64,000 nucleotides of DNA from the UHGV virus genome UHGV-1484817; one strand, written 5' to 3'. Shown here piece by piece: positions 1,246-27,145 of this stretch. Made by a program: the position numbers and the translations under genes. This DNA comes from a virus. The notes below the pieces were generated by a model. The model saw only the letters and a program-made list of their open reading frames with translations. It searched no databases and was not told where the DNA came from. Numbering within the stretch: the stretch's first letter is position 1; every line of letters starts with the position of its first letter.

Positions 1246-3165
1246 ATGGAACAGTTCAATATCAATAAAGGGGTGACGATCAAACCTGGGCTTGACGCGC
1301 TTCCCCCGCCAGTGACTGATGATGAATATCGCGCATTAATGGCCGGTGAGGACCGCTATCTGATGACGGAATCCAACACCCTGGAGGAAATCGAGGCTAC
1401 GTTCTTCTATGACACGCCGATCCACTGGTGTGCTACGGATTTACTGGAGGCGATTAGTTCTACTCGTTTGCAGTTACACCGGACCATGCAGGCATTTGTC
1501 CGGGCATTGAACCAGAAGCTGAATGGTACCGGAATCTCTGCGGGGAGTGATAAAACGGGCGATGTGGCCCAGAGCGGCGCGCGCGCGATCGGCGGCGCTG
1601 AAATTGGTCGGGCACGTAACGTTAACGGGCTGCCGGTCCTGCCAGCCATTATTCCGCTCAGTGATGGTCAGACTATCAGCATTCTGTTTCATAGCCCGAC
1701 AGCGGAAAACCGGATCACCAATAGCGATACGCTGGTTGCTTTCCAGTTCTTACTGAATAAAAAAGACGTTACTCACACCGTTGCTCCGATGAGTGGACGT
1801 GATATGACGCTGGCGCAGGTCACCATGAAACTTGCCAACCTTGCAGAGAAAAACTCGGCAAAATTCCAGCGTGCGCAGAAGAAGAAAAAAGCCCTTGTTG
1901 ATGAAATAACCCAACTACAGGCTGACAGTGACCAGAAAGAGGATGCCATGAGCGACCTCGCGGATCAGGTGGCAGCGGTAGAAGGGCAGAAGGCAGATCT
2001 GGAGCAGAAAATTAACGCTGTTGCATCGGAAGCGGATTCTCTTTATGAAGAGAATGAGCGTTTGCAGACGGAGATTGATCAGCTCAATCGCACTGGTGGG
2101 CGCGATACCATTGCTCCTGCGGGGATGACTGGTGGGTACTCTCGCGCGCTGACGGATCGCCTTGCCAGTATCAAAAATCGTATGCATATGAACGGGGAAG
2201 TGACGCTCAGTAATGGTGCATCAATGAAGCAATTCATTGAGGACGGCGAAGGGTATATCCAGTTAACCGATTCGGATGGCAGCGTGTACATGATCAAGGC
2301 TAAATCCATACAGGGTGTGGACATGGCAGATGCGATCGGCAAGCTGTTTAAAGCCTATAAAGCGGGTAATGTATCGGAATATCTGGTCCAACCAGAAGAA
2401 CATAAACCGGAAAACGTCGAACCTGAACCAGCGGAGGATACCGGTAGCTCTTCGCCTGAACCAGAAGTCTCTGTAGGTGCATATCGATATGCCCTGCAAA
2501 TGCGTCCGGCGGCCCCTGGCGCAATACCTGAAGGTAACAAAGCAATTCTGCCGCGCCCTGATGAAGGTGACCCGTATTATGAATATGCACGCTACGGCAT
2601 TGTTACTTACGATACCCCGCTTTCTGATCAGCAAATGAGTGAGTACGACCTGAAGTTATTGCCTCGCGAGGATTCTTTCGACTTCCTGGCGAAGACACTT
2701 ACTAATGGTCCGTTTGGCAAATATGCACAAAAAGCTCTGGAGCTGGCCACCAGCTCACCAGACGAGTTCCGCGTAATGCTGAAAACTCAGTTTCAAAAAA
2801 CTTTCCCCAATATTGCGTTTCCTGGGGGCGCTGGCATCGAGAAAATGGTGCAGAGCATGATCAATGCATTGCAGGCCGAAGTCGGTGAGATTACTCAACC
2901 AGAACCGGTCCCGGCACAGCCTGATGAAACGGTTAGCGAAGCAGATGCAGAGGCTAATAAAGCCATTGAATATCTCAATAGCGTGATGGATATGCAAAGC
3001 ACTGACATGGCGGAGATCCGTAACGCCCGGGGCAATGTCCGGGAAGCGATTGCTGCCCTTCAGGCTGCCGGACGTTTTGAGGAAAACGAAGAGCTGGTTA
3101 ACGGTGCTGCTCGCCACCTGGCTGATCTGCTGGTAGCAATCCAGAAAGCGGGGGTAGCGGCATGA
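1246..3165 (+). CDS. darA: DarA-like antirestriction / head internal protein precursor
   Basis: 639-aa ORF, size as recalled for P1 DarA; first large gene of a lydB-hdf-darA-ddrA-ddrB array; TGA overlaps the ddrA ATG. Confidence 0.75.
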   Translation: MEQFNINKGVTIKPGLDALPPPVTDDEYRALMAGEDRYLMTESNTLEEIEATFFYDTPIHWCATDLLEAISSTRLQLHRTMQAFVRALNQKLNGTGISAGSDKTGDVAQSGARAIGGAEIGRARNVNGLPVLPAIIPLSDGQTISILFHSPTAENRITNSDTLVAFQFLLNKKDVTHTVAPMSGRDMTLAQVTMKLANLAEKNSAKFQRAQKKKKALVDEITQLQADSDQKEDAMSDLADQVAAVEGQKADLEQKINAVASEADSLYEENERLQTEIDQLNRTGGRDTIAPAGMTGGYSRALTDRLASIKNRMHMNGEVTLSNGASMKQFIEDGEGYIQLTDSDGSVYMIKAKSIQGVDMADAIGKLFKAYKAGNVSEYLVQPEEHKPENVEPEPAEDTGSSSPEPEVSVGAYRYALQMRPAAPGAIPEGNKAILPRPDEGDPYYEYARYGIVTYDTPLSDQQMSEYDLKLLPREDSFDFLAKTLTNGPFGKYAQKALELATSSPDEFRVMLKTQFQKTFPNIAFPGGAGIEKMVQSMINALQAEVGEITQPEPVPAQPDETVSEADAEANKAIEYLNSVMDMQSTDMAEIRNARGNVREAIAALQAAGRFEENEELVNGAARHLADLLVAIQKAGVAA

Positions 3166-3527
3166 CACTATCAGCTATTGAGTTAATGGACCTCAGCGAT
3201 AAGTTGGATGCTCTGATGTCCAAAGCGGCTACCGCGAGTGGCATGGAGTTGCTGGATATCAGCGATGAAATTGACCAGATCATGCAACAGATGGGGTACG
3301 GCGCGTCCGGCGGCAGTAGTGGCGAGGAAAAACAACCTTCGGTACATGATGGTGTGCCAAAACTGGTTGCTGATTTCCTGGCTGATAAATTCGTCGATCA
3401 GAGCACTGATGCATTTATCGGTACGTTACAGGACTTGAGTCAATATGTTGGCACATACATCGACCTGGACCAGGTTAAACAGCACACGGCGGCATGGATA
3501 GCCGCCAACATTAAAGAGGCAGCGTGA
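3162..3527 (+). CDS. ddrA: DdrA-like protein
   Basis: 121-aa ORF translationally coupled to darA (ATGA overlap); synteny. Confidence 0.55.
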   Translation: MTLSAIELMDLSDKLDALMSKAATASGMELLDISDEIDQIMQQMGYGASGGSSGEEKQPSVHDGVPKLVADFLADKFVDQSTDAFIGTLQDLSQYVGTYIDLDQVKQHTAAWIAANIKEAA

Positions 3528-3720
3528 CATCCTCCACGCCCCGAAGGGCGTGGATTCCTGCTACGTTCAGGCTGTCGCCTGAATCATTTCGGTGGGTTCC
3601 TGCTTCAACGGGCGGCCTGACTGCACCATCCCTCCACAGGCAAGTACGGCGTGCCCCGCCGCTAAAATGTTACGAGCGCCGTTTACATCGGCGTTCGCTG
3701 TATATCCACATACCTGGCAT
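3528..3720 (-). ncRNA. Candidate TnpB-associated right-end RNA (omega/reRNA)
   Basis: By family precedent the guide RNA overlaps the 3' end of tnpB and the right end; this stretch includes the stable hairpin at about 3534-3553; not demonstrable from sequence alone. Confidence 0.3.
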
Positions 3721-4775
3721 CTGAATTTACTTTGTGACAGGCGATTTTCTTTCGCTGTATGACCACAGCACGCGCAACGCTGGCTTGTGTACGCTGGCGG
3801 AACAGCAAGCACCTGACCGCCACGCCAGAGCTGCTTGTACTCAAGCTGGCGGCGCATTTCATACCAGCCCTGATCCAGTATCGAACGGTTTAAACCTGAT
3901 TTTGCCCGGACATTGCGACCCGGATGACTTATCGTTCCCGCCGCTGACTTTGACATGTATTTAACCTTCAAATCCTCAATGACAATCATTGCGTGGTTTT
4001 TGCTGACGGTCGTTGTGACTTTGTGAAGGTAGTCCCTGCGGATATTTGCGATACGGGAATGCAGTCGCTGTATTTTGCGTTTCTGCTTCTGCCAGTTGTT
4101 GCTGAATTTGACCTTGCGGCTTAACTGTCGCTGAAGTCTCGCCAGCTTCTTCTGGTTTTTCTGAAAACTATTTACAGGTTCAAAGACTGTGCCATCTGAC
4201 AGCGTGGCGAGTTTAGCCACGCCAGCATCCAGTCCGACCATTGATGCTGAAGGGTGAACAGGAGTGGATACCTCTCTTTCTGTCTGAATACTGATGTACC
4301 ACTTACCGCAGGACTGGCTGACAGTAACATTTTTCACAATACCCGTGACCTGACGGCTATTCCGGTAGCGCATCCAGCCAAGTTTCGGCAGAAAAATACG
4401 GCTGTTTTCCTGATCGAGCTTAACACCCTGCGGGTAGCGGAATGCATCATTCTGTCCCCGCTTTTTGAATCGGGGAAAAGCTGCCCGATTCTGGAAGAAG
4501 TTTTTGTAAGCCCGCTCAAGGTCTTTCAGTGACTGTTGCAATGGCTGTGAGGGAGAATCTTTAAGCCATTCGGTTTCAGTGTCTTTTTTCCACTCAACCA
4601 ACCAGGAAGCCATTTTCGTGTAAGGGATGTATTTTTTACCGGCCTCATGATTCTCATTCTGAAGCGCCAGAGCACGGTTGAAAACGAAACGACAAGCTCC
4701 GGCAAAGCGCCTCATTTGACGCTCCTGTTGACCATCTGGTTTTAACCGGAATTTGAATGACACCTGTTGTTTCAT
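3567..4775 (-). CDS. tnpB: TnpB (OrfB) RuvC-like transposon-associated protein
   Basis: 402 aa; C-terminal CxxC...CxxC zinc finger (CACCGH...CQVCGY) followed by ADVNGARNI, typical of IS605 OrfB/TnpB; no tnpA (Y1 HUH) ORF nearby. Confidence 0.9.
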
Positions 4776-4874
4776 GTCACTATTTTAAGCAAAAATAGCC
4801 GGGAGGAAAACTGTGCCTTATATCCCCACTATGAGGAGCGTAGGGGGCGGCACATTGGATAAGGCGTAACAGGG

Positions 4875-7862
4875 ATGAGCTTAAGCGATCAGGTGGTAAT
4901 GGCCACCAGCATAGAAACGCTGATCGAGCTGCTAAAGAACCTGCCCGATTATGGGCGGGTTTCGTATGTGGTGACAGCGAAGGGAGACGAGGTAAAAACA
5001 GCGTTTGATATCGTCGATGCCTCAGCTCTTTTGGTATCCAATACTCTGGATGGGAAAATTAATCCTGACTATCCCCAGGAACTTCAACCGCGCGACCGGA
5101 CCCGCGCATCCAGCCTTCTTCAGGTTAACCAGATATCCAAGGATTTGCGGCCTGCTCAGCTTACCGATTCCGGTCTATCCAGCCATGGCGCGCCGATAAT
5201 TGGTGAGGACAATGCCGTTGAGTCAGGTAATGGACGGACCATGGGGATCATTAAAGCCTATCAGGACGGCAATGCGGATCGGTATCGTGAGTACCTGATT
5301 GATCATGCGACCGAATTCGGCATACGACCTGAAAAGGTTGAATCAATGACGGCTCCGGTACTGGTGCGCCGCCGGTTAACTAAGGTTGACCGCGTTCAGT
5401 TTGCCAAGGACTCAAATATTTCTGATCTTCAGGAAATGGCAGCCAGTGAAAAGGCTTTTGTTGATGCCGACAGCATAACACCGGCGATGATGGCGCTTTT
5501 TAACCCGTCAGAAAGCGGAGATCTGCTTAGCCGCAGTAATGACACGTTTATTCGCGGATTTATGACGCAAGTTGGTGCCACACAGGCGGCTGGCCTTGTA
5601 ACTGAAGATGGGCGACCAACACGGCAACTTGTAGACCGTATACAAAACGCGATCTTTGCCAAGGCATATAAGGATGCGCGCCTGGTAAGGATGGTTGCAG
5701 AAGAACCTGATCCGGATATGCGTAATGTTCTGACGGCGCTTAATGCGGCAGCCAATGATTTTGTCCAGATGCAGGCTTTGTCAGGAGAAGCGCACAAGCA
5801 GGCTGTGACAACTATTGTTGATGGCATTGAGACAGCGGATAGCCTCGATAAAAAGGCGCTGGCGGCATTGAAAGATGCGGTAGACCTGGTAAGGCAATCG
5901 AAGGAGTTAGGCCAGCATATTACCGATGTTATTGCTCAGGGGGATATGTTCAGCGAAACGGCCCCGGAAGTGAAAGCACTCGCGTTGTTCATCGTCGCGA
6001 ATAACCGTAGCGCGAAGCGTATGGCCACCGCCTTTAAGTTGATGGCGCAACGTATCAATGATGAGTTACAGCACCAGGGCCAGGCGCTCGGGGATATGTT
6101 TGGCGGCGGCGATGTGTCGTTACAGGATATCCTTCGCCAGGTGTCTCAGGAACTGGAAAACGAAGGCATGCAAGGGATATCCGGCGGTCTTTTCGAGTCC
6201 GTTTCCGGCGGTAGTTACAACGGTGTTGCTCCGTATACCAGTTTGCTATTACATCGGGCATCCGGCATCAAAGACATTATTCATCTGATCAGGCTGCTTT
6301 CCCGCACAGATCCCCAGGATGAACAGCTTGTACAAGTGCTTGCGCATTTTGTTCGAATGCCTGTTGCCGACGTGAATAAATGGTGCCGATTATTCGGTAT
6401 CAGCAATTCGTTACTTCGCGGATTGTTAAATCACGCATCCTCCCTTGGGCGCGACGGCTTTGATGAGATAGCGCAGGCGATACAAAACGGAGATATGCCA
6501 CCAGCTATTGACTGGTTTTCCATTCGCCCAACCAGGGTGAAAGCATTCCTTAGCGCGGCGCATTCGGCATCACCATTGGCAGAAATGGTTCAGAGGTTGT
6601 CGCTCATATTCACAGACCATACCGCGTTGGGTGATCTGACTCTGGACGAGATGAAAGAAGCCTCCATTCAGTGGGCCGATCAACAAAATGAGGTTAACTC
6701 AGACTTCTTGCCAGCATTCAGGAAGGCCGTTAGTAAAGCGGATGATTCCCGTGGAATTCTGAAGGCATTTAAGGCATTGCAAAGTCGGGTTAATAAACAT
6801 GTCGGAGATATCGATGGGGTAACGGCGGAAGGCAGGGATATCCTTAAAGAGCACGGCATAACGCCAGAGTTTATTGATGAGATCAGGACGGATATGCAGC
6901 GTGAGGTCGTATCGTCCCTGCAAATTGTAGCCAGAGCGTTGGCGGATGCTAATCCGAAGAGTGCGGCCATTGTTAACCGGGTTATTGGTGATATTGAAGC
7001 ATCGGAGGGCATGGGGGCGCTGAAACTCTTCCTTTCGCGAGCGTTTAATCCTAACGGCAATATTCTCCCTGGCATTATTGGTGAGGCTAAAAAGTATGTC
7101 AGTGAAGAAGAACTTGAGCAGCTTGACCAACTACTTAAGCGATTCTCATATAACCCGCAGACACGCTGGCAAATGAATCAGCGAAGTATGGGTTCGGTCC
7201 ACGAGAAAGTGTTATCTGCCATGAACAGTGCGATCGCAAACTCATCCGTATCTGAAGAAAAAGCTCTTGAGTGGGCCGACTCTTTTATCACAGAAGAAGT
7301 GGAAGAAGCCCGCGCTGGACAGAATGGTGGGATAGACCTGCGCAAGGAACTTGCTGATATTTATCGCCTGACCGGCGGGAAAATATCGACCTTATCAAAG
7401 GTAGTTCACCACCAGGGAAGGGCATATGCAAATCTAAATGGTGTTGTTGCTGTCAATTTGAACGATGAAAATGCAAGTGCACTGTGGCACGAGCTGGGTC
7501 ATCATCTTGAGTACAGTAACCCCGGTTTGTTAGAGAAAGCCCGGTCATTCCTGAAGGCCAATGTTGAAGGGGATAAGCCATCTTTCGTCAATATCGGTGG
7601 GCGTGGCAAGCCTGAATGGTGCTTCAGATCTCGATTGAGTAATATTTATATGGCGAAGGTATACCCGCCAGCCTCAGTAAGTAACACCGGGAAAATTCGG
7701 CAGAAATCACCGACTATTTCCAAAACGTCAGCAACGGAAGTATTCTCTATGGCTCTTCAGTTGTATCATGACAAAGAGGCCGCTGCCGCATCACTGATGA
7801 ATGGTGACGGATTGCTGGAACTGTTATTAGGTGTGGCAAAGGAGCTAAATAATGCAGATTAA
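4875..7862 (+). CDS. ddrB: DdrB-like large protein with an HExxH motif
   Basis: 995-aa ORF after ddrA; HELGH at about aa 872-876 (nt about 7488-7502); synteny with P1 ddrB. Confidence 0.55.
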   Translation: MSLSDQVVMATSIETLIELLKNLPDYGRVSYVVTAKGDEVKTAFDIVDASALLVSNTLDGKINPDYPQELQPRDRTRASSLLQVNQISKDLRPAQLTDSGLSSHGAPIIGEDNAVESGNGRTMGIIKAYQDGNADRYREYLIDHATEFGIRPEKVESMTAPVLVRRRLTKVDRVQFAKDSNISDLQEMAASEKAFVDADSITPAMMALFNPSESGDLLSRSNDTFIRGFMTQVGATQAAGLVTEDGRPTRQLVDRIQNAIFAKAYKDARLVRMVAEEPDPDMRNVLTALNAAANDFVQMQALSGEAHKQAVTTIVDGIETADSLDKKALAALKDAVDLVRQSKELGQHITDVIAQGDMFSETAPEVKALALFIVANNRSAKRMATAFKLMAQRINDELQHQGQALGDMFGGGDVSLQDILRQVSQELENEGMQGISGGLFESVSGGSYNGVAPYTSLLLHRASGIKDIIHLIRLLSRTDPQDEQLVQVLAHFVRMPVADVNKWCRLFGISNSLLRGLLNHASSLGRDGFDEIAQAIQNGDMPPAIDWFSIRPTRVKAFLSAAHSASPLAEMVQRLSLIFTDHTALGDLTLDEMKEASIQWADQQNEVNSDFLPAFRKAVSKADDSRGILKAFKALQSRVNKHVGDIDGVTAEGRDILKEHGITPEFIDEIRTDMQREVVSSLQIVARALADANPKSAAIVNRVIGDIEASEGMGALKLFLSRAFNPNGNILPGIIGEAKKYVSEEELEQLDQLLKRFSYNPQTRWQMNQRSMGSVHEKVLSAMNSAIANSSVSEEKALEWADSFITEEVEEARAGQNGGIDLRKELADIYRLTGGKISTLSKVVHHQGRAYANLNGVVAVNLNDENASALWHELGHHLEYSNPGLLEKARSFLKANVEGDKPSFVNIGGRGKPEWCFRSRLSNIYMAKVYPPASVSNTGKIRQKSPTISKTSATEVFSMALQLYHDKEAAAASLMNGDGLLELLLGVAKELNNAD

Positions 7863-8194: not shown

Positions 8195-9289
8195 TCACGA
8201 GAAGCTTTTTTCTGATGTCAGCCAACAGTGCTCGTGCAAATCTCTTGGTGGTTTTTCGACAAATGCCTCTTCAGCCACATCCTGCCAGGGGATTTGTTTA
8301 GCCCATTCAGTTATAGCGTTATGGTTTGCCGAGAATAACGGTATTGTATAGGCCTTCAGCCAGTCTAATGTGCTGGAGTTGTGTTTTTGAGCGTGATGTT
8401 TCGCATGGTGTTTGGCGATCACGATCGTAGGCACTACCCATTTACTACCGTCAGTCATTGTGAAGTGCATATTACGGGGAACAGATGACTTTTCCATCAA
8501 CTCCCGAATCCCGGGGAATTTCCCCAAGATCAATCGGCGATATTCATCGCTATTGCGCCCACCAAACTCTTTGGCTTTGAATTCAAGATATGCTTCAGAA
8601 ACGAGAGGTGAATCCTCTGTGTTTAGAGTTATCGCCGTGAAAAAACCAGCAGGATTGTTTTTACTATGGGCCAACCGGTGATGCGAATCATAAAAGTACC
8701 CTTTCTCGCGTTCCGATGGTTTCGACAGCAACAGCAGGCGCGAGTCATAATTGGTTAAATTGCCAGTTATCACTGCATGAGCGCGATCGCTGATTTCCGC
8801 CGAGTTAATAACGATGAAAAGATCGTGCGGTCCAGTAAAACCAGCCAGAGACTCTTCGTTATTCAGACAATAGGTTATATAGACGCATCCCCATGTTTCA
8901 CTGATATGCACCAACCCTTTGTCAGGGTGTATTCTGAAATAATTGCCAAGAAAAGGGTGTTTTTGGGTAACTCGCTCCCAATAACGGAACATATAGTCAA
9001 TTATTGTTTTTCGACTATCGTTAATAGCAGGAGAAACAACCACTGTACGGGAACACGAATACAGTATTGTTTGCAGGATGCTAATCACTGCCACAATAGA
9101 GGTTTCCCCAATACCATGTGGTGTGGTGGCAGTGACTTTGGCTCCGGTGTTCTTTATCGCGTTAATAATTTTTGCTTGATGAGGTGTTAACTCAATATCA
9201 AGCAACTCTTTCGCTGCCAGTTCCCAATTGTCTTTATACTGTTCTATCAGTGCTAACCAGGCAGATTCATTCTGTATACGATTAATCAC
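8195..9289 (-). CDS. Paralog of terminase large-subunit (PacB) ATPase domain with degenerate Walker A and B
   Basis: 364 aa; aligns to the N-terminal half of the PacB encoded at 28868-30352 (ITGNLT...LLLLSKP...GYFYDSHHRLA...TAITLNTEDSPLV); Walker A is HGIGETS instead of HGTGKSD; Walker B is IVINSAE instead of YIIDEAS; no C-terminal nuclease domain. Confidence 0.7.
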   Translation of the reverse strand: MINRIQNESAWLALIEQYKDNWELAAKELLDIELTPHQAKIINAIKNTGAKVTATTPHGIGETSIVAVISILQTILYSCSRTVVVSPAINDSRKTIIDYMFRYWERVTQKHPFLGNYFRIHPDKGLVHISETWGCVYITYCLNNEESLAGFTGPHDLFIVINSAEISDRAHAVITGNLTNYDSRLLLLSKPSEREKGYFYDSHHRLAHSKNNPAGFFTAITLNTEDSPLVSEAYLEFKAKEFGGRNSDEYRRLILGKFPGIRELMEKSSVPRNMHFTMTDGSKWVVPTIVIAKHHAKHHAQKHNSSTLDWLKAYTIPLFSANHNAITEWAKQIPWQDVAEEAFVEKPPRDLHEHCWLTSEKSFS

Positions 9290-10278: not shown

Positions 10279-10767
10279 CTAAAACGGAATATCGTCTTCA
10301 AAGTCCATTGGAGGTTCGTTATTGGCGCTGCTCTGAGGTTTGCCGCCACCGCTGTATTGCTGGTGGTTTTGAGGTTGGTTTGACTGCCCCCAGCCATTTG
10401 AGGACTGTGAATCGTCGCGGCGAGCGCCGATCATTTGCATGGTGCCGCCCTGGCTGACGATAATTTCCGTCGTGTAACGTTCTACACCGGCGTCATCTGT
10501 CCACTTACGGGTTTTAAGTTTCCCTTCGATGTAGACCTGAGAACCTTTTCGTAAATACTCACTCGCGATTTCAGCAAGTTTTCCGAACAAAACGACTTTA
10601 TGCCATTCTGTTTGCTCTTTCTGTTGGCCTGTTTGCTTGTCGCGCCATGATTCATTCGTTGCGATGCTGAGTCTTCCGACTGCTCCGCCATTTGGTATAT
10701 ACCTGATATCTGGGTCTTGTCCCAGGGTACCTATCAGGATGACTTTATTTACACCGCGTTGTGCCAC
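10279..10767 (-). CDS. ssb: Single-stranded DNA-binding protein
   Basis: 162 aa; N-terminus [23 protein letters not shown] close to E. coli SSB; Gly/Gln-rich linker; C-terminal acidic tip DDIPF. Confidence 0.95.
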
Positions 10768-10786
10768 TTATCTCACCTAATAAAAT

Positions 10787-10803
10787 AAATTAATTAGAGC
10801 AAT
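10787..10803. promoter_or_regulatory. C1 operator-like site in the ssb/lyz divergent region
   Basis: AAATTAATTAGAGCAAT, 16 of 17 matches to the reverse complement of the C1 operator consensus. Confidence 0.55.
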
Positions 10804-10936
10804 AATGTATATCTTTGAAACGTAGCTAACAAGTGATTTGCATTATCCTGTACCTTCTAAAGGGATCGAGTCAGTCGGTATTGGCTGTGAATGGGTGTTT
10901 GTCCTGGAGCGTAAAAAATTCGCTTATGAGGTCTTT

Positions 10937-11494
10937 ATGAAGGGAAAAACAGCCGCAGGAGGCGGTGCAATTTGCGCTATCGCGGTGATGATTACCATCG
11001 TGATGGGTAATGGCAATGTGCGAACCAACCAGGCGGGGCTTGAGCTGATTGGTAACGCTGAAGGTTGCCGACGTGATCCATACATGTGCCCGGCGGGTGT
11101 ATGGACTGACGGGATTGGTAATACACACGGGGTAACGCCAGGCGTGCGAAAAACCGACCAGCAAATCGCCGCTGATTGGGAAAAGAATATCCTGATCGCT
11201 GAACGCTGTATTAACCAGCACTTCCTGGGCAAAGACATGCCCGATAATGCCTTCAGCGCAATGACAAGCGCGGCATTCAATATGGGATGCAATAGTTTAC
11301 GGACCTACTACAGCAAAGCGCGAGGCATGCGAGTAGAAACGTCCATCCACAAGTGGGCGCAGAAAGGAGAATGGGTGAATATGTGTAACCATCTCCCTGA
11401 TTTCGTGAACAGTAACGGCGTGCCCCTGCGAGGTTTAAAGATTCGCCGTGAAAAAGAACGCCAGCTTTGCCTGACGGGACTGGTCAATGAATAA
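10937..11494 (+). CDS. lyz: SAR endolysin (T4-lysozyme-like) Lyz
   Basis: 185 aa from MKGKTAAGGGAICAIAVMITIV (Gly/Ala-rich signal-anchor-release segment) followed by a lysozyme-like domain; the longer ORF from 10838 was rejected. Confidence 0.9.
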   Translation: MKGKTAAGGGAICAIAVMITIVMGNGNVRTNQAGLELIGNAEGCRRDPYMCPAGVWTDGIGNTHGVTPGVRKTDQQIAADWEKNILIAERCINQHFLGKDMPDNAFSAMTSAAFNMGCNSLRTYYSKARGMRVETSIHKWAQKGEWVNMCNHLPDFVNSNGVPLRGLKIRREKERQLCLTGLVNE

Positions 11495-11522
11495 ACTCCG
11501 GCAGCTCCGCCGACTTTCGACA

Positions 11523-11741
11523 ATGAAGTTATCGCTGGCGGCGATAGTTTTCGACTCGATTTTCATGGCGGTATATGTGCTCAATGAGACGTGGCCACTG
11601 GAACCGCTATTATATGCCGGGCTTCGGCTGTGCCTGACATTTTTGAGCATGGCTGCAAGATTGATGCAGCAGAAAGAAACCGCTTCAGATTGCCCACGTC
11701 GCGCGGTGCGAAAATATATGGCACGCAGACGAAGGCGATAA
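11523..11741 (+). CDS. Possible small membrane protein downstream of lyz
   Basis: ORF 11487-11741 overlapping the lyz stop; hydrophobic segments and an Arg-rich C-terminus; no homology evidence. Confidence 0.25.
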   Translation: MKLSLAAIVFDSIFMAVYVLNETWPLEPLLYAGLRLCLTFLSMAARLMQQKETASDCPRRAVRKYMARRRRR

Positions 11742-11753
11742 TAGTTAACGAGA

Positions 11754-11780
11754 ACCCCGGCAGCCGCCGGGGTTATTTTT
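11754..11780 (+). terminator. Intrinsic terminator after the lyz unit
   Basis: CCCCGG-CAGCCG-CCGGGG hairpin followed by TTATTTTT. Confidence 0.5.
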
Positions 11781-11785
11781 GATGG

Positions 11786-12835
11786 TTATTTAAACGGATT
11801 GATTGAATTATTAAACGTGATGATGCTTGTCTCACGCGGTGCCTGGACGTTAGCCGCTTGCGGAACCTCCTTAATTTTCTTGGTGACAGGCAAGTTGCGT
11901 GCGCCAACTTTGATCAGAGATTCGAAAAGTGTGGCAACGATTTTTGCATCACCAGGTTCTTTGAGGCGGAATGCGTCTTTTTGGGCGGCGGAGACGAAAA
12001 TCGGGAGGTTATCCAGTTCGTCTTGCATTGCTGCCAGCACATCGTCGCGGATACCCGCTGTTTCCTCCAGCAAAGCGATTCGCGCTTCAGCATCTGCGAT
12101 CTTGGCCATTGCTTCGAGGTGGCGGCCCTGGCTTTCGAGTAGTGCGGTTTCCAGTTCTGCCGTACGCTCTGTCGCCTCCACCATCATTTCCAGTTCAGCC
12201 ATTTTGCCGTAATGGGATATAACGGCCTGCACTGACTCGTCGGAGTACCCATGCGCCGCCAGGGACTCTGCCAGTAAAGATTTAGAATCCGCGCTTTCAA
12301 ACATTCCGGCGCTGGCAGGATGATCCAGACTGATATAGTTCGGCGTTGTCACATAATCCACACCATGGAAGCTGGTGGTTACAGCGATTTTCCCGGACTC
12401 ACGCCCGCCAGTGGCCCAGCTCCAGCCACCAGCTCGGCTTTCGATCATCGCGGCGACAATTTTACCCGGCTCTGTGTTAAGAATTTCCTGTGTATGGGTA
12501 ACGATGCCGTTGTCGTCAACGGATATAGCTACTGTGCGGCAAGCTGGAACATTGTCGATAACGACCGGGCGACCTTCCACCATGATCACGCTGGTTTCTG
12601 GTACTTCCAGTTTGCCGGTCAGCTGTCGGCGACCGTGACCGTAATAGCCGAAAAGCTCACCAAGGCGTAAACCTTCCTGAGTTTCCTTGCTTTCAAGCAT
12701 GGTCTTTACCGCGCTTAATACATACTGTCGCCCGTTCTGGCGACCTTTTCTAGCATTACTATAGAGACAAAAGCGGTCAGTGACCGTTTTCAAAACATCA
12801 GTCATTCTCGTTTCCCTCTTTAAAGACCGATTCAA
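11786..12835 (-). CDS. pro: Head processing protease Pro-like
   Basis: 349-aa ORF directly downstream of the portal-like gene on the same strand; coiled-coil C-terminal half; synteny with P1 prt-pro. Confidence 0.7.
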   Translation of the reverse strand: MNRSLKRETRMTDVLKTVTDRFCLYSNARKGRQNGRQYVLSAVKTMLESKETQEGLRLGELFGYYGHGRRQLTGKLEVPETSVIMVEGRPVVIDNVPACRTVAISVDDNGIVTHTQEILNTEPGKIVAAMIESRAGGWSWATGGRESGKIAVTTSFHGVDYVTTPNYISLDHPASAGMFESADSKSLLAESLAAHGYSDESVQAVISHYGKMAELEMMVEATERTAELETALLESQGRHLEAMAKIADAEARIALLEETAGIRDDVLAAMQDELDNLPIFVSAAQKDAFRLKEPGDAKIVATLFESLIKVGARNLPVTKKIKEVPQAANVQAPRETSIITFNNSINPFK

Positions 12836-12851
12836 GGATTTGCGCCAGTTC

Positions 12852-14516
<1,665 letters not shown>

Positions 14517-14582
14517 TTAATTAGAATAATTCGCATCGTGTTTGAACGGAATTTAACACTAGTCACTTGTTAAGGATTACCA

Positions 14583-17500
14583 ATGAACAAGCTATCTATG
14601 GGTGTGTTTCGCTGTTCAAGTGTCAGCGAAATATTGAAATACATTAGGGCAATAACATCTCACCGAGCGCCGATTAAATACGGCGTGGAAAAGGTGGAAG
14701 GCAAAAGCTATGACCGACTGCGCCGGGAGGCGAATCAGAAGGCGATAGATTTGCTTAATTCGCTGGTGGACGGCGCGACACTGACAGATGAACAGCGCCA
14801 GATCCTGGCCGGGTACACTGGTGAAGGCGGCATTGGCGGGTCCGTCTCCGAATATTACACACCAAAGCCTATCGCTGAAGGTGTCTGGGAGATCATGAAG
14901 CTCTACGGCGCGGACGTAGGTAACACTCTGGAACCATCGGCGGGAACCGGCGTTTTTAATGAGACAAAACCGGTTGGTACGGTGATGACCGCGACTGAGA
15001 TCAGCAGTGTTTCCGGTCGTATAAACCAGTTGTTACACCCGGAAGACAGCGTACAGATTTCCCCGTTCGAACAGCTGGCTATAAACACGCCTAACGATTC
15101 ATTCGACCATGTTGTGGGTAACGTTCCGTTCGGCGGTCGTGATAACACACGCAACATCGATAAGCCTTACGCAGAAGAAACGGACATGGGGTCTTACTTC
15201 ATGCTCCGCATGCTGGACAAGATAAAACCTGGCGGATTCATGTGTGTGATTGTGCCGCCGTCCATTGTTTCAGGTTCAAACATGAAACGGTTACGCCTGC
15301 GCCTATCACGGAAAGCTGAATTTCTTGGTGCCCACCGCTTGCCTACCGGTACTTTTGACGCAAACGGGACCAGTACAGTTGTTGATGTGGTGCTGATGCG
15401 CAAACATCCGGCAGAGATGGCTGAGAAAATCCCCCTGGTGGATGAAAGCACTCTCGAATCGGCAAATGTGCTTTGGCCAACGTTTATTTCTGGCAAGTGG
15501 TTTGAAAAGGACGGCCGCCGGTTTGTTCATGGCACCCAGGAAAAGGGCTTCCAGGGGCGTATTGAGGTTCGTGCCGACGGTCAGATTGATAACCAGGCTC
15601 TTAAAGCGAAGCTGATTCATCGTTTCGAAAGCCGTATCGACTGGTCTTTGCTCGATATGGCTGAACCGTCACCGACCGCAGACGTTGTTGGTGAAGGGGA
15701 AATGCGCCTGATTAATGGCGTATGGCAAAAATATGCTGGTGGTCGCTGGATTGAAGCTGATGCCGGGAAGGAACTTAAGATCGATGCTGCCAGTTATGGC
15801 GCGGATAGCTGGGAGGCTCTTCAGCGTAACCTGACTACAACAGAAGGCCGTCTCGGCATGACATTTACCCAGATGGCAAATGTCCGCGATAAGTACACCA
15901 CATCAATCAGCGACGATATGGTGCAGCTGGTGGACTGGATTAACAGCCAGCCTGAAAAATACCGTGAACGCTTGTATCGCGGGGCGATGATTGGCCGGAT
16001 GTTAATTGAATATCAGGACATGAAGGCCGCCGGGCATAGTGCTGAACAAATCGAACAGCAGCGCCTTTCTCTGGTATCCCGTTTGCAGGCAGAGATTGAC
16101 CGTTTTGGTAACCCCGGTCGCGGTCCGATAGCGAAATTGTCGGGGAGCGGTGCGCGCGCCTGGTTTGCTTTCCGTGGTGCAATTAAGCTGGATGGCACTA
16201 TTTCTGACGAGCTGACAGGGAAGCTGGTTACGCATGATTCCAGCGCAAGTTATGACTCCACCAGCTATCAGGACACCCTGCGTTATCTCTATAGCGATCT
16301 CACCCGCGATCCAATCCAGCTCGATGATTTCCGCCTTGCGTTTACCGGCGAACTGCCAGCCAGTGATGAAGAGTTGCTTAATTTATTGGCCAGCACCCCT
16401 GGTATTGCGGTTTCACCGTATGGCGGGATTGTTCCGTTCGCCCGCGCCACCAGCGGCGACATTAACGAGATAGTGGCTCCAAAACAGGAATTCCTCGCCA
16501 CACTCCCCGACGGTCCAGTAAAGAACAACGTCCTTAATCAGCTGGCAGCTATCGAAGAGAAGCGCATCAAGACGCCAGCAGATAATATCCGGTTTAAGCT
16601 CAATAGCCGTTGGTTCGACCGTTCCGTCATTCTGGAATTTTTGCAGGAAAACGGCTATCCGGATCTGCGCTATGTGCAGTCAGTGCAGCTGGAAGGCGAC
16701 GAAATGGTTTCTGACACCTATCACGGTGGTGATGGTCTGTTCGTCGGGCACCGATACGGTGTCGTCCAGCGCAAGGATAAAGAAACAGGTGAGATTCGCT
16801 ACGAGTGGGACCGTAAATCAGGTGAAAACGCGACCGGGTTCCCGGCACAGCTGGAAAAGTATCTCAATGGTGCGCGTATCGGTGGCAAAGATAGCGCGAC
16901 GGCGAACGGCTACCGCGAGCAGATGGCACTGCTTGAGGACCAGTTCAATAAGTGGATCAAGACGCACGATCGCTACGATGAGCTGGTTGCCAAATACAAC
17001 GATGTGTTCAATAGCAATATCCCGTATGAACACTCTGGCGATCCGCTTGGGTTGAAGGGATTAAGCGGTAAGCGCCAGCCATTTGATTACCAGAATAGCG
17101 AGGTGCGCCGACTGTCCGAAGATGGGCGCGGCATCCTGGGCTTCGGCACCGGGCTGGGTAAAACTACGACCGCGCTGGCGCTTGAGGCGTTCAACTATGA
17201 GAACGGTCGCTCCACCCGTACTGCGTATGTAGTGCCTAAATCAGTGCTGGAAAACTGGTATTACGAAGCAAAAGAATTCCTGAGTGAAGAGGCATTCAGT
17301 AACTACCTGTTCGTCGGTCTTGATGTGCTGATGGATGGCGATCAGATTCGCCAGGTGCAGGTGCTCGATGAGAACGGTAAACCTGTTCTTGGTACTGATG
17401 GCACTCCAGTTATGCGCGATGCTCTTAAGCTGGCAGATGAAGCCACTATCACGGCGCGGATGAACGCGATCCCGCACTCAAATTACCGTGCAGTCGTGTT

Positions 17501-20500
17501 TACCAAAGAACAATACGCCCGCATTCCGCTACGTGATGACACCGTAGATGAGCATGCACAGGATATGCTTTATGACTTCGTTGCCGCCGGACGCGTAGCC
17601 AGCGCAATGGACTCCGACTCCCACCGCAAAGAGGCCGCGCGTCGCCGGGTATTGTCGGAGTATTCAGATACCGGCACCGAAAAAGCAGAGAAGTATCCGT
17701 ACTTTGAGGATATGGGCTTCGATAGTGTGATCGCTGACGAAGGTCACAACTACCGCAATAGCTATAAAAATGGTCGCGAAGCGTCACAACTGGCCTATCT
17801 GCCCACCAGCGCGGTGGCGCAATCGGCGCGAGATATGGCAATTAAAAACGCGTACCTGATGAAAAAGAATGGTGGGCGCGGGCCGGTTCTCCTGACTGCA
17901 ACGCCAGTCGTTAACACCCCGATCGATGCATACAACATGCTTTCTCATGTTCTGCCGAAGGAATACTGGCAGAACATGGGGATCTACGGTCCTGATGACT
18001 TCGTTAAATTCTTCGGCAAGACCAGGCTGGAAACGGTACAGAAAATTAGCGGTGAAGTTGAAGAAAAAATGGCGCTGGTGGGCTTTGAAAACCTTGATGC
18101 GCTGCGCGGTATATTCCATCGCTGGGTAACGCTTAAAACGGCGGAAGACGTTAAGGATACCGTGGAGATCCCGGAGCTGGACGAACACCAGCAGGATGCA
18201 CCACTTACTGAAGAACAACTGGCGGCGTATGAAGAATTGCGTCAGCAGGCGGAAGCGGCGGCCAAAGCCAACAATGGCGTAACGACCTCGGTCAATGAAG
18301 ACGGCGTGATTGAGCACGAGAAAGCCCGTCCGATCTTCTCAATAATCAGGGATATGGACCGCGTATGTACTGACATGGACCTGTACTATCGCCGGATCAC
18401 CTATCGTTTCCTGCCGGAGTACGCCGATGCGGTGCAGCAGCTGGCGGACAGTTTGCCTAAACAAGCCACCAGCGAAGACGACGACAGTGATGATTCAATC
18501 ACGCAGCAATCGCAATACTCCCTGATAGATAAGGGCGAGTTTATTCAGTTGCAGGTTCCGGAAGCGTTCGAGCAGGAAGTGAATAAGCGCCTGGCCAGGT
18601 TTGGCATTGACGAACAGACCGTAACTCACCCCGTTACGCCCAAATACGCGAAGCTGATTGCCACGCTGAAGGAGTTTTTCCCGGAAGGTAAGCAAATCAT
18701 CTTCACCGATGAAAAAACGCAGCACCAGAAGCTCAAGCGCATTATCTGCAATGCTCTTAACCTTGAACCTTCAAAGGTGGGGATACTGAATGCTCAGACG
18801 GTTGCCGAGGCAGGTAAAACCGGTAAGAAACTGAAAGCGGTTAAACCGCCGAAAGAGTTACCGGATGAACCAACAGATGCACAGATAGCGAAATACAACG
18901 AGCAAATGGCTCTGTATGACGCCTATATCGCGCAGCAAAATGAAATGTCGTTGGGCGGTCTGGAAAAGATTGCAGCCGACTTCCAGGAGGGCCGGACTCC
19001 GATCATCATCTGCAACAAAAAGGCAGAGGTGGGTATCAACCTGCATCGAGGAACGACTGACATCCATCATCTGACGTTGCCATGGACTCCAGCCAGTATT
19101 GCGCAACGAAACGGTCGCGGTGCCCGAGTTGGCTCCAACCGTGCAAGCGTTCGCGTTCACTACTACTGCGGCAAGGGGTCTTTCGATGAATACCGACTGA
19201 AGACGCTGAAGCGTAAAGCAGGCTGGATCTCCGATATCCTCCGTTCAGATAAGTCAGAAATGGAGAACGCCGACGCCAACGATATGATCGAAATGCAGAT
19301 GTATACCGCGAAGGATGACGGCGAACGTCTGGCAATGATGCAGGTTCAAATGGATAAGGCGAAAGCTGCGAAACGCGCTCGCCAGAAAGAACAGGCTACT
19401 ATCGACCTTCAGAACTACATCAAGGCGCAGCACGCAGCTGGTGAGGATGTGGAGGTACTTACCGCTGAATTGGAGCGAAGCAAAGCGGAACTTGAAAAGA
19501 CCACCGCCGACGTCGCCAAATTCAAACAGGCGGTAATGGCCAAAGCAGCTGATAACGCAGACTGGAAAGCCCGCTGGGGTAGCGTCCATCACACAGACCG
19601 TATGTTGTTAGCACAGTATCGCGCGTCGTTGAAAAGCGCCATTCAGCGCAAGGCTAATATCTCTCAGGCCATCTCCCGCTATGAGAAATTATTGAACCGT
19701 ACTCAGAAGGCCGCGACGGATATCAAACGCCTGCGCCCGCTGGTGGAGGATGCAATAAATAAAGGCATTCTGGATGTTGATCCTGATCTGGTTAACCATG
19801 CGAATGAGTTCCTTGTTATCGGCGATCGCTCATGGCGTGTAGGCCAATACTATGATTGTGCCGGTGATATCGTTCGCATTAAGTCGCTGGACTTCGACAG
19901 CCAGCGCGCAGACGTGGAGATCATCTTTACCTTCAAAGGCACCAAATCGGGTAACTGGGATGTGAAGACGCTGGATAAACAGGTTGATGTAACTCCCGAT
20001 GAAGATGCTGTTATGCAGAAAATCAGTGGTGGCGTCTCCATCGCCGGGATTAACGACATCGTTTCCTGTGACGATTTCTACCGTTTCCAGCAGCGCGGCA
20101 TGATCAAAATCACTGACTCATACGGCGTTCAGACTACAGAGTCAGGCTATAGCATTGATTTTGTTGGTACCTATACGGACCCACTGAAGCATGCGGTTTA
20201 CCCGGATCGCCGTGACGGCGCGCTGAAGTCGTCAATTGCAAAATGGGTGCTTGGTATGATGTCGGAAGGGAATAACCGCCAGATCCGTTCGGCAGAAGCA
20301 TTCCTGGTTGAACTGTTTGGCTCCAATTATGGCGATGTAATCGCGTCATACGGAGATACGCTATCCCCTGAAGCAATTCAGGAGAAAATAGCGGATGCGA
20401 TCGCCAGAATGCCGGAGAAAACAAGCCAGGGGGCTACTCGTAACGGGGATTCTGAACTTGAAGTCACCAATGCCATTTTCGGTACCAATGAGTTCCGGGC

Positions 20501-25538: not shown

Positions 25539-25558
25539 CATGTTCAATAACCCTTAAG

Positions 25559-25592
25559 ATAACTTCGTATAATGTATGCTATACGAAGTTAT
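25559..25592. other. loxP: loxP recombination site
   Basis: Exact ATAACTTCGTATA-ATGTATGC-TATACGAAGTTAT. Confidence 0.98.
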
Positions 25593-25635
25593 TAGGTCTG
25601 AAGAGGAGTTTACGTCCAGCTGCGCATAAAAATCA

Positions 25636-25652
25636 AGAATTATTAGAGCAAT
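25636..25652. promoter_or_regulatory. C1 operator-like site (Op99 cluster)
   Basis: AGAATTATTAGAGCAAT, 15 of 17 matches. Confidence 0.5.
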
Positions 25653-25712
25653 AAATTTTGAGAGAAAAATCCCACTCCACCAGCCAAAAACTGGATTGTT
25701 TTTCATAGTTGT

Positions 25713-25741
25713 TTGACAATTGCTCTAATAAATTATAGTTT
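25713..25741 (+). promoter_or_regulatory. coi/c1 promoter with embedded C1 operator
   Basis: TTGACA -35, then the 17-bp ATTGCTCTAATAAATTA (16 of 17), then TATAGT -10; reads toward coi and c1. Confidence 0.65.
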
Positions 25742-25973
25742 TGCCGCCGTTTCGTAATACGACTTTGGATTCACTATTTAATGTGTCTTCAGCGTTGTAG
25801 AGCGGCTCAGAAGGAAATGAGCAAACAGGGAAACCTTATACAACGGCATTACAGCTATGCATTGCTCATCTTACACACAGCGCAATGTTGTTAGATTACC
25901 CCAGCATGGATCATGGGTGAAACAGTAGGTCAGAGCTTCAGGCTCTGTGTTGTCAATACAGTGAGGCATAATT

Positions 25974-26183
25974 ATGGCTTTCATTCCACCAACCATCGAC
26001 GACGTTAGACATTGCTCTAACGCTTTATCTGTAGACCCCGCCGAAACCGACGCTGCCCGCGCCATTGCTGAACACTACTCAAAGATATCCAATCAGGAGT
26101 ACCGCATCACCCAAGACGACCTGGATGATCTCACTGACACAATCGAATATCTCATGGCCACTAACCAGCCAGACTCACAATAA
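25974..26183 (+). CDS. coi: Coi, C1 inactivator
   Basis: 69-aa ORF directly upstream of c1, with the size recalled for P1 Coi. Confidence 0.85.
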   Translation: MAFIPPTIDDVRHCSNALSVDPAETDAARAIAEHYSKISNQEYRITQDDLDDLTDTIEYLMATNQPDSQ

Positions 26184-26293
26184 ATGCACTAATAAATCTA
26201 TTATTTTCGTTGGATCCTTCTATAATGGTGGCCAACAACTCCCAGTGTAATCCGCTGTGAGTTGTTGGCCATGTCAATTCTGGAGGAGGATCA

Positions 26294-27145
26294 ATGATAA
26301 ATTATGTCTACGGCGAACAACTGTACCAGGAGTTCGTCAGCTTCAGGGATCTCTTTCTAAAAAAAGCTGTTGCACGCGCCCAACACGTTGATGCCGCCAG
26401 CGACGGTCGTCCTGTACGCCCGGTTGTCGTTCTGCCGTTCAAAGAAACTGACAGCATTCAGGCTGAAATTGATAAATGGACTTTAATGGCGCGGGAACTG
26501 GAACAGTACCCAGACCTCAATATCCCAAAGACTATTTTATATCCAGTGCCTAACATCCTTCGCGGTGTGCGTAAGGTTACGACTTATCAGACAGAAGCTG
26601 TGAACAGCGTCAACATGACTGCTGGCCGCATTATTCATCTGATTGATAAGGACATTCGCATCCAAAAAAGCGCGGGGATCAATGAGCACAGTGCGAAATA
26701 CATAGAGAACCTGGAAGCAACAAAAGAGCTAATGAAGCAGTACCCGGAGGATGAAAAATTCCGTATGCGTGTACACGGCTTTAGCGAAACAATGCTGCGC
26801 GTCCACTACATTTCCAGTAGCCCTAACTACAATGATGGTAAATCAGTTAGTTACCATGTGCCACTGTGTGGCGTGTTTATCTGCGATGAAACTCTCCGTG
26901 ATGGAATTATCATCAACGGTGAATTCGAAAAAGCAAAATTTAGCCTTTATGACTCCATAGAACCGATCATCTGCGACCGCTGGCCGCAAGCAAAAATATA
27001 TCGCCTGGCAGATATTGAAAATGTAAAAAAACAAATTGCCATCACTCGCGAAGAGAAAAAGGTTAAGTCAGCCGCATCAGTTACGCGCAGCCGTAAAACC
27101 AAGAAGGGGCAGCCAGTAAACGACAACCCCGAAAGCGCGCAATAA
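26294..27145 (+). CDS. c1: C1 repressor of lysis
   Basis: 283 aa, the size of P1 C1; sits beside loxP/cre and the operator cluster; sequence recognised as C1. Confidence 0.95.
   Translation: MINYVYGEQLYQEFVSFRDLFLKKAVARAQHVDAASDGRPVRPVVVLPFKETDSIQAEIDKWTLMARELEQYPDLNIPKTILYPVPNILRGVRKVTTYQTEAVNSVNMTAGRIIHLIDKDIRIQKSAGINEHSAKYIENLEATKELMKQYPEDEKFRMRVHGFSETMLRVHYISSSPNYNDGKSVSYHVPLCGVFICDETLRDGIIINGEFEKAKFSLYDSIEPIICDRWPQAKIYRLADIENVKKQIAITREEKKVKSAASVTRSRKTKKGQPVNDNPESAQ

Follow-up and report, generated by a model that had tools for sequence, protein, structure and literature searches.

A tnpB-only IS609-type element between ddrA and ddrB of the P1-like phage-plasmid RCS47, a candidate for RNA-guided homing

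The DNA analysed here, a stretch of 64,000 nucleotides recorded as UHGV virus genome UHGV-1484817 and called the window below, is that of Escherichia phage RCS47, a P1-like (Punavirus) phage-plasmid bearing blaSHV-2; positions 3400-5000 show 100% identity to FO818745/NC_042128. Between ddrA and ddrB of its darA antirestriction operon lies an insertion that is, almost beyond doubt, a 1,335-bp element of IS609 type (IS200/IS605 family) from which the transposase gene tnpA has been lost, placed immediately 3' of the tetranucleotide TTAT, without duplication and antisense to the operon. The element keeps a gene for the RNA-guided nuclease TnpB that is under purifying selection in situ. The overall explanation we favour, with some reserve, is that this non-autonomous element has probably been kept and spread by TnpB and its guide RNA (ωRNA) homing on empty junctions.

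The element has already been annotated and published, and so it is not new. The GenBank record of RCS47 labels it insQ / transposase IS605, and an IS609-like sequence was placed at 25,544-26,881 of the P1-like pSvP1 (MN510446) by Venturini et al. 2019 (PMC6906374), a paper that contains no discussion of TnpB, guide RNA or homing. The pSvP1 record (H259) has the same junction of ddrA and insertion sequence (IS) as RCS47.

Ends and organisation of the element at the ddrA-ddrB junction

The P1 Dar antirestriction system includes DdrA and DdrB (PMC12810830), and in P1 (NC_005856) the two genes lie 12 nt apart. An earlier note on this DNA, made from its letters alone, had proposed that a tnpB-only IS200/IS605-family element missing from canonical P1 separates them in RCS47, and this holds in both respects: the P1 genome lacks the interval, and the open reading frame (ORF) in it matches the TnpB family. 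The extent given in that note, 3528-4874, is the gap from the ddrA stop to the ddrB start, and the inserted DNA itself is 3524-4858, as defined by aligning the junction with that of P1. Excising 3524-4858 gives the P1 junction, GAGGCAGC joined to ATAAGGCG, save for one single-nucleotide polymorphism (SNP), and leaves no duplicated bases, that is, no target-site duplication. The empty sites read GCAGC followed by ATAAGGCG in all nine that were sampled, and the ends of the element are identical in all nine filled loci.

The top strand of the element is the minus strand of the window. Along it run TTAT, the left end (LE) from CCAATG onwards, tnpB, a 43-nt right end (RE) closing in ...GGATGTCAC, and the flank GCTGCC. 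TTAT stands 5' of the LE at four independent places, namely RCS47, the IS609 of E. coli K-12, p1_000837 (pWCHEC) and pJIE250-3. In agreement with this, Venturini et al. 2019 (PMC6906374) give TTAT as the left cleavage site of IS609 and TCAA as the right one; the right motif is TCAA in the K-12 copy and TCAC in RCS47.

On the ddrA strand the right end starts with G-TGA, which turns the final codon GCA into GCG, a silent change, and supplies an in-frame TGA in place of the displaced TAA. DdrA therefore stays at 121 amino acids with its sequence unchanged. The same arithmetic applies to IS609 at large: the complement of its right end is (G/T)TGA and that of its target is ATAA, so that an antisense insertion at an A-TAA stop recreates an in-frame stop. 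A 4-nt overlap with the stop of the upstream gene recurs at an independent P1-like site, at the head-processing gene of pJIE250-3 (L022, 1575-1578). Alternative ends at 3525-4859, which would assume a GCG polymorphism in ddrA, were ruled out: all nine empty sites have GCA TAA, and the K-12 and pWCHEC copies begin with CC... directly after TTAT and finish with ...TCAA.

Subterminal hairpins take the place of terminal inverted repeats at both ends of the element, the one at the LE being weak. The earlier note had reported a perfect hairpin at the ddrA-proximal end, where the guide RNA would be encoded. The hairpin is real and would belong to the RNA scaffold, with the guide expected outside the element, from 3523 to about 3504. 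Folded as DNA, the RE hairpin reaches -12.2 kcal/mol (z = -3.8), a value equalled by none of 200 shuffles, and it is kept in K-12 IS609. Its loop (3542-3545; alignment columns 719-722) is flipped among same-site copies, reading CGAA on the plus strand in RCS47, L006, L007, L008 and L010 and TTCG in SJ46, L009, L011 and L012, which corresponds to UUCG or CGAA on the element strand. This inversion looks like a palindrome-mediated flip.

The LE of RCS47 consists of an outer stem and an inner hairpin with a weak fold (z = -0.96), and the fold of the SJ46 LE is stronger (z = -2.4). The outer part is homologous to K-12, with a compensated outer stem (GCGCC/GGCGC vs GTGCC/GGCAC), whereas the inner hairpin, in K-12-type copies a near-duplicate of the RE hairpin, has lost that resemblance in RCS47. 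The first ~107 nt of the element (the LE and the start of tnpB) did not align to K-12 in megablast, and the RCS47 LE is just 73% identical to that of the pWCHEC-type tnpB-only copy.

No Y1 (HUH) transposase TnpA is present in the element, in which no more than 83 nt separate the LE tip from tnpB, and a tblastn search with the K-12 IS609 tnpA remnant against the whole 64-kb window returned nothing credible. The sole match, at 14037-14168 (E=0.006), falls within blaSHV-2 and was rejected as spurious. Without a Y1 transposase, the element is thus a tnpB-only (IS1341-type), non-autonomous derivative, as had been claimed. IS609 tnpA was found in 4,994 of 5,426 complete E. coli genomes, and a helper in trans is therefore usually available.

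The IS609 of K-12 (insQ/ydcM with the tnpA pseudogene yncK; NC_000913 1503161-1504908) is 95% identical to the RCS47 element over 1,235 nt spanning tnpB and the RE. Besides the RE hairpin, it shares the TTAT 5' of the LE and the homologous outer LE; it differs in its length of 1,748 bp and in keeping a divergently oriented tnpA remnant, whereas tnpA is cleanly absent from RCS47. Its RE closes with TCAA, and the inner hairpin of its LE matches its own RE hairpin, unlike the diverged one of RCS47.

TnpB and its predicted guide RNA

The product of tnpB matches three Pfam domains of TnpB, HTH_OrfB_IS605 (1.6e-16), OrfB_IS605 (1.5e-34) and Cas12f1-like_TNB (2.4e-24), and the solved structures of ISDra2 TnpB in the Protein Data Bank (PDB) at E=9e-52, which bears out the family assignment of the earlier note. 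The RuvC residues D183, E267 and D363, plus G181, are all present, as are the zinc-finger CxxC pairs at 334-337 (C334/C337) and 353-356 (C353/C356). With an offset of +2, residues of RCS47 TnpB correspond to the ten critical residues of PMC12781874. The ORF is intact, catalytic motifs included, in all nine same-site copies sampled. The copy in the Salmonella phage SJ46 occupies the identical site and keeps the ORF with 51 differences from RCS47 in 1,335 nt, at a ratio of nonsynonymous to synonymous substitution rates (dN/dS) of 0.19. The same-site copy of L010 (pLH10-b-1-B) lacks 15 nt of tnpB, with the frame preserved, and has 12 substitutions clustered in one patch, which suggests that another IS609 copy donated this sequence by gene conversion. 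Our literature searches for experimental data on the activity of IS609 TnpB or on its transposon-adjacent motif (TAM) yielded only a trans-cleavage screen that included it as one of nine purified orthologues and gave no result for it in particular.

The TnpB-ωRNA systems of ISDra2 and IS608, reportedly those of Karvelis 2021 and Altae-Tran 2021, have the same domain architecture and catalytic residues as RCS47 TnpB. Their ωRNA comes from the tnpB 3' end and the RE, the guide lies beside the RE and the TAM is the target motif, and the same is predicted for RCS47. The differences are the lack of tnpA in RCS47 and the predicted TAM, TTAT as opposed to TTGAT (ISDra2) and TTAC (IS608). In the established TnpB model, the DNA directly past the right end serves as the guide of the ωRNA and the target motif of the transposon as the TAM (PMC10055086, PMC10097598); the former paper, by Meers et al., is the precedent for TnpB homing, and the latter provides the structure.

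Applied to RCS47, this model places a predicted guide of ~16-20 nt outside the element, next to the RE. In seven of the nine empty P1-like sites, TTAT is followed by a perfect 24-nt match to the RE-adjacent sequence; the remaining two (L015 and L019) carry a single guide mismatch at position 11 (T>C) or 12 (A>G), the equivalents of window 3513 and 3512. These mismatches could be drive-resistant alleles or could be due to chance.

For the scaffold, three Rfam matches below their gathering scores are co-located at the 3' end of the element: HgcC at 3511-3634 (22.6 bits; gathering score 50), sot0042 at 3533-3694 (17.8; gathering score 88) and RAGATH-18 at 3597-3640 (28.1; gathering score 44.9). 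Of these families, HgcC and sot0042 have been reported from the 3' ends of tnpB genes (PMC4615843). The fold of the 227-nt 3' RNA has a minimum free energy with z = -3.3, and in comparison with a distant copy the ωRNA region is 98.7-99.3% identical, against 86-92% for the 5' part of tnpB. Matches, fold and 3' conservation are together compatible with an ωRNA, short of proof. A terminator-like hairpin with a T run (TGGCGGCTATCCATGCCGCCG TGTGCTGTTT) occurs on the minus strand at 3487-3507, within ddrA. It starts ~17 nt past the right end, where an ωRNA with a ~17-20-nt guide would stop; terminator-like sites in the region are no commoner than in shuffles.

By analogy with the characterised systems, we infer expression of the ωRNA, TTAT as the TAM, cleavage and homing for the RCS47 element, and we regard the chances that it works according to the established TnpB model as evenly balanced. 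The element cannot transpose alone. Its tnpB 3' end and right end would give rise to the ωRNA, with the adjoining ddrA-antisense sequence as the guide, and TnpB with this ωRNA would cut the uninterrupted junction TTAT-GCTGCCTCTTTAATGT... in any co-resident P1-like genome, which includes its own site after excision as well as IS-free relatives. Repair off the IS-bearing copy would then re-install the element, amounting to homing with a gene-drive or anti-competitor effect.

An experimental parallel is the work of Mears et al. (bioRxiv 10.1101/2025.02.20.638934), who demonstrated TnpB gene drive and an 'anti-self' defence of plasmids. There too, a TnpB-bearing IS that sits in conserved DNA of a low-copy plasmid is able to target IS-free versions, and the polymorphism of filled and empty sites and the IS-centred identity tracts described below for RCS47 are compatible with that model. 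Their study concerned F and multicopy plasmids with IS605-type elements, whereas RCS47 is a temperate phage-plasmid for which the evidence is comparative.

Filled and empty junctions among P1-like genomes

In complete E. coli genomes, 453 P1-like junctions comprise 64 filled and 389 empty ones (~14% filled). PLSDB holds 75 filled junctions, Salmonella among them; of the phages on record, RCS47, vB_EcoM-813R1 and SJ46 have the filled junction and P1, P7 and others the empty one. An LE of RCS47 type (at least 95% identity) occurs in exactly 64 records of the 5,426 complete E. coli genomes, all of them P1-like plasmids; a donor copy with such an LE was found nowhere else in E. coli outside the 64 filled junctions, and none was chromosomal.

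We aligned 700-nt flanks on each side (1,400 nt) of nine filled and nine empty loci. The mean numbers of differences per 1,400 nt are 29.0 between filled loci, 33.0 between empty loci and 31.0 between filled and empty loci, with zero fixed differences; the filled and empty backbones are intermingled. The flanks of SJ46 differ from those of one empty plasmid at just 7 of 1,400 positions; this nearest empty backbone is L019, which carries one of the two guide mismatches. The IS copies of RCS47 and three other plasmids are 0-2 nt apart, and their flanks are 8-31 nt of 1,400 apart. RCS47 and pSJ_98 have a single difference in the 1,335 nt of the IS, flank differences that begin at a distance of 117 nt on the left and 170 nt on the right, and ~1-2% divergence over 3.5 kb on either side; at the flank rate, ~17 differences would be expected within the IS by our own arithmetic, where 1 was observed. 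Flanking SNPs are co-inherited with the IS for ~100-400 nt. Either the element and short stretches of its flanks have been transferred between diverged backbones at this single site, or some of these backbones have lost it precisely.

Several observations weigh against homing as the cause of this pattern. The sample comprises just 18 loci, and although no identity block within 8.3 kb is longer than the one centred on the IS, the flanks too have difference-free runs of 590-763 nt. Same-site IS copies are up to 3.8% apart (51/1,335), and the insertion must therefore be old. The differences within the IS are patchy (positions 188-199, 395-461 and 484-534), and their clustering suggests conversion from chromosomal IS609 copies, which could maintain the ORF without selection on the phage copy. 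The ordinary recombination of mosaic P1-like genomes could yield the same intermingling, strong drive does not predict an occupancy of ~14%, and in the Rfam scan no RNA family reached its gathering score, the matches being weak and co-located.

The patchiness, the deep same-site diversity, the intermediate frequency and the mosaic nature of the P1-like flanks themselves also suit an inert passenger, that is, one old and inactive insertion reshuffled by homologous recombination, with tnpB kept intact through gene conversion from chromosomal IS609. Donors for such conversion are plentiful, since 5,015 of the 5,426 E. coli genomes contain IS609. We nevertheless hold a passenger to be fairly unlikely in view of the in situ dN/dS of 0.19, the nine intact ORFs with their catalytic motifs, the near-identical IS on four backbones with divergent flanks, and the single difference between RCS47 and pSJ_98 where ~17 are expected. 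If the copies had instead arisen by repeated, independent TnpA-catalysed insertions into the same TTAT of different P1-like genomes, the IS609 tnpA carried by most E. coli hosts would be the helper, and IS609 did strike P1-like DNA at another position as well: in pJIE250-3 it hit the stop codon of the head-processing gene. However, the RCS47-type LE is confined to this site in all 64 records with no chromosomal copy and no visible donor, its inner hairpin is no longer like the RE hairpin, and the flanking SNPs that travel with the IS fit recombination rather than transposition, all of which renders repeated insertion very improbable.

Two further explanations seek the benefit of the insertion in the operon. 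The site lies within a late operon between two co-transcribed genes, and the 1,335 nt have no plausible ORF on the sense strand, which would allow Rho-dependent polarity; such polarity over 1.3 kb of untranslated RNA is possible. The untranslated antisense DNA or its hairpins might reduce expression of ddrB/hxr, in line with the polarity suggested in the earlier note, and be selected for tuning antirestriction. A single weak terminator-like site is found on the plus strand (4141-4156), but terminator-like sites number 3 against 2.3 expected in shuffles, no T tract follows the RE hairpin on the plus strand, and a weak promoter-like site on that strand (4757-4786) could read toward ddrB. Furthermore, ddrB is intact and strongly constrained, and its dN/dS of 0.05-0.10 against SJ46 and P1 (0.05 between two IS-bearing phages) is weak evidence on polarity as the flanks recombine with IS-free lineages. 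A selected polar or regulatory insertion appears improbable to us. A nuclease-dead, domesticated TnpB acting as an RNA-guided repressor of the dar operon in the manner of TldR would find its complement in the operon DNA at the ddrA 3' end, but the RuvC catalytic residues and the zinc finger are all intact and the protein is full-length, encoded by DNA 95% identical to ordinary IS609 tnpB; we give this idea next to no credence.

Homing, the reading we prefer, may also be taken further. In a stronger form, which we advance only tentatively and consider doubtful, the element would in practice no longer be a transposon, because it has no tnpA, a diverged left-end hairpin and one locus only, and would have become an RNA-guided homing cassette specific to P1-like phage-plasmids. 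Such a cassette would be copied into IS-free P1 relatives by cutting the ddrA-ddrB junction, it would also arm its carrier against incompatible (IncY) competitors and against superinfection by P1-type phages, and the targets with a single mismatch would be drive-resistant alleles. What deserves to be kept in any case is a site-fixed tnpB-only element in about one-seventh of P1-like phage-plasmids, with a nuclease gene subject to purifying selection and near-identical copies in diverged backbones. P1 and RCS47 could be a handy natural system for TnpB homing and gene drive between temperate phage-plasmids and for their competition, because P1 lends itself to genetics and isolates of both kinds, filled and empty, are available.

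Related copies and the surrounding genes

Table 1. Positions of the element, its parts and the neighbouring genes in the window
Feature	Position	Strand	Remarks
Complete IS609-type tnpB-only insertion, 1,335 bp	3524..4858	-	Deletion restores the P1 junction
Target tetranucleotide, TTAT on the element strand (ATAA on +)	4859..4862	-	Predicted TAM; contains the displaced original TAA stop of ddrA
Left end (LE), 83 nt, without tnpA remnant	4776..4858	-	Inner hairpin diverged from K-12-type LE
tnpB (insQ), 402 aa, intact gene of an RNA-guided nuclease	3567..4775	-	Pfam and structure matches
Right end (RE), past the tnpB stop, top strand closing ...GGATGTCAC	3524..3566	-	Alignments with K-12, pWCHEC p1_000837 and SJ46
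RE subterminal hairpin	3533..3554	.	TCCACGCCC-TTCG-GGGCGTGGA; 9-bp perfect stem, 4-nt loop
Predicted ωRNA scaffold (tnpB 3' end and RE)	3524..3700	-	5' limit approximate
Predicted guide segment, 5'-GCUGCCUCUUUAAUGUUGGC	3504..3523	-	Antisense to the last ddrA codons; placed by its position just 3' of the RE
darA	1246-3165		Pfam DarA_N/DarA_C
ddrA	3162-3527	+	Last base (3524) and TGA stop (3525-3527) are IS sequence
ddrB, 995 aa, intact	4875-7862	+	Pfam ddrB-ParB; native 12-nt leader kept, one SNP vs P1

The tnpB-only IS609 of pJIE250-3 (MN510445) resembles the RCS47 element in size, in its antisense orientation and in the 4-nt stop overlap with the neighbouring gene. Its cleavage sites are TTAT and TCAA, and it differs in its location at the end of the head-processing gene and in its K-12-type LE. 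Its empty site could not be reconstructed from the window, in which the end of the RCS47 head-processing gene differs in sequence. In the E. coli plasmid p1_000837 (L004), 92.5 kb in size and with phage-like genes, a tnpB-only IS609 follows a TTAT between two phage genes; the junction left by its tnpA deletion is the same as in RCS47, its LE is of K-12 type and its RE has TCAA. IS609 tnpB, in fragments or nearly complete and with 95-97% identity, also occurs in records of unrelated phages, namely the filamentous phage If1 (U02303/NC_001954), Morganella phage IME1369_01 (KY653118) and Aeromonas phage AP1 (MT713136).

Farther along the window, a 364-aa ORF on the minus strand (8195-9289) lies downstream of hxr; its annotation in the RCS47 record is 'DNA binding protein / transposon functions'. 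An IS26-bracketed segment at ~10422-20058 contains blaSHV-2 and chromosomal-type genes (ygbL, ygbM, a recF-like gene and a lacY remnant) and sits within isaA, matching the RCS47 annotation.

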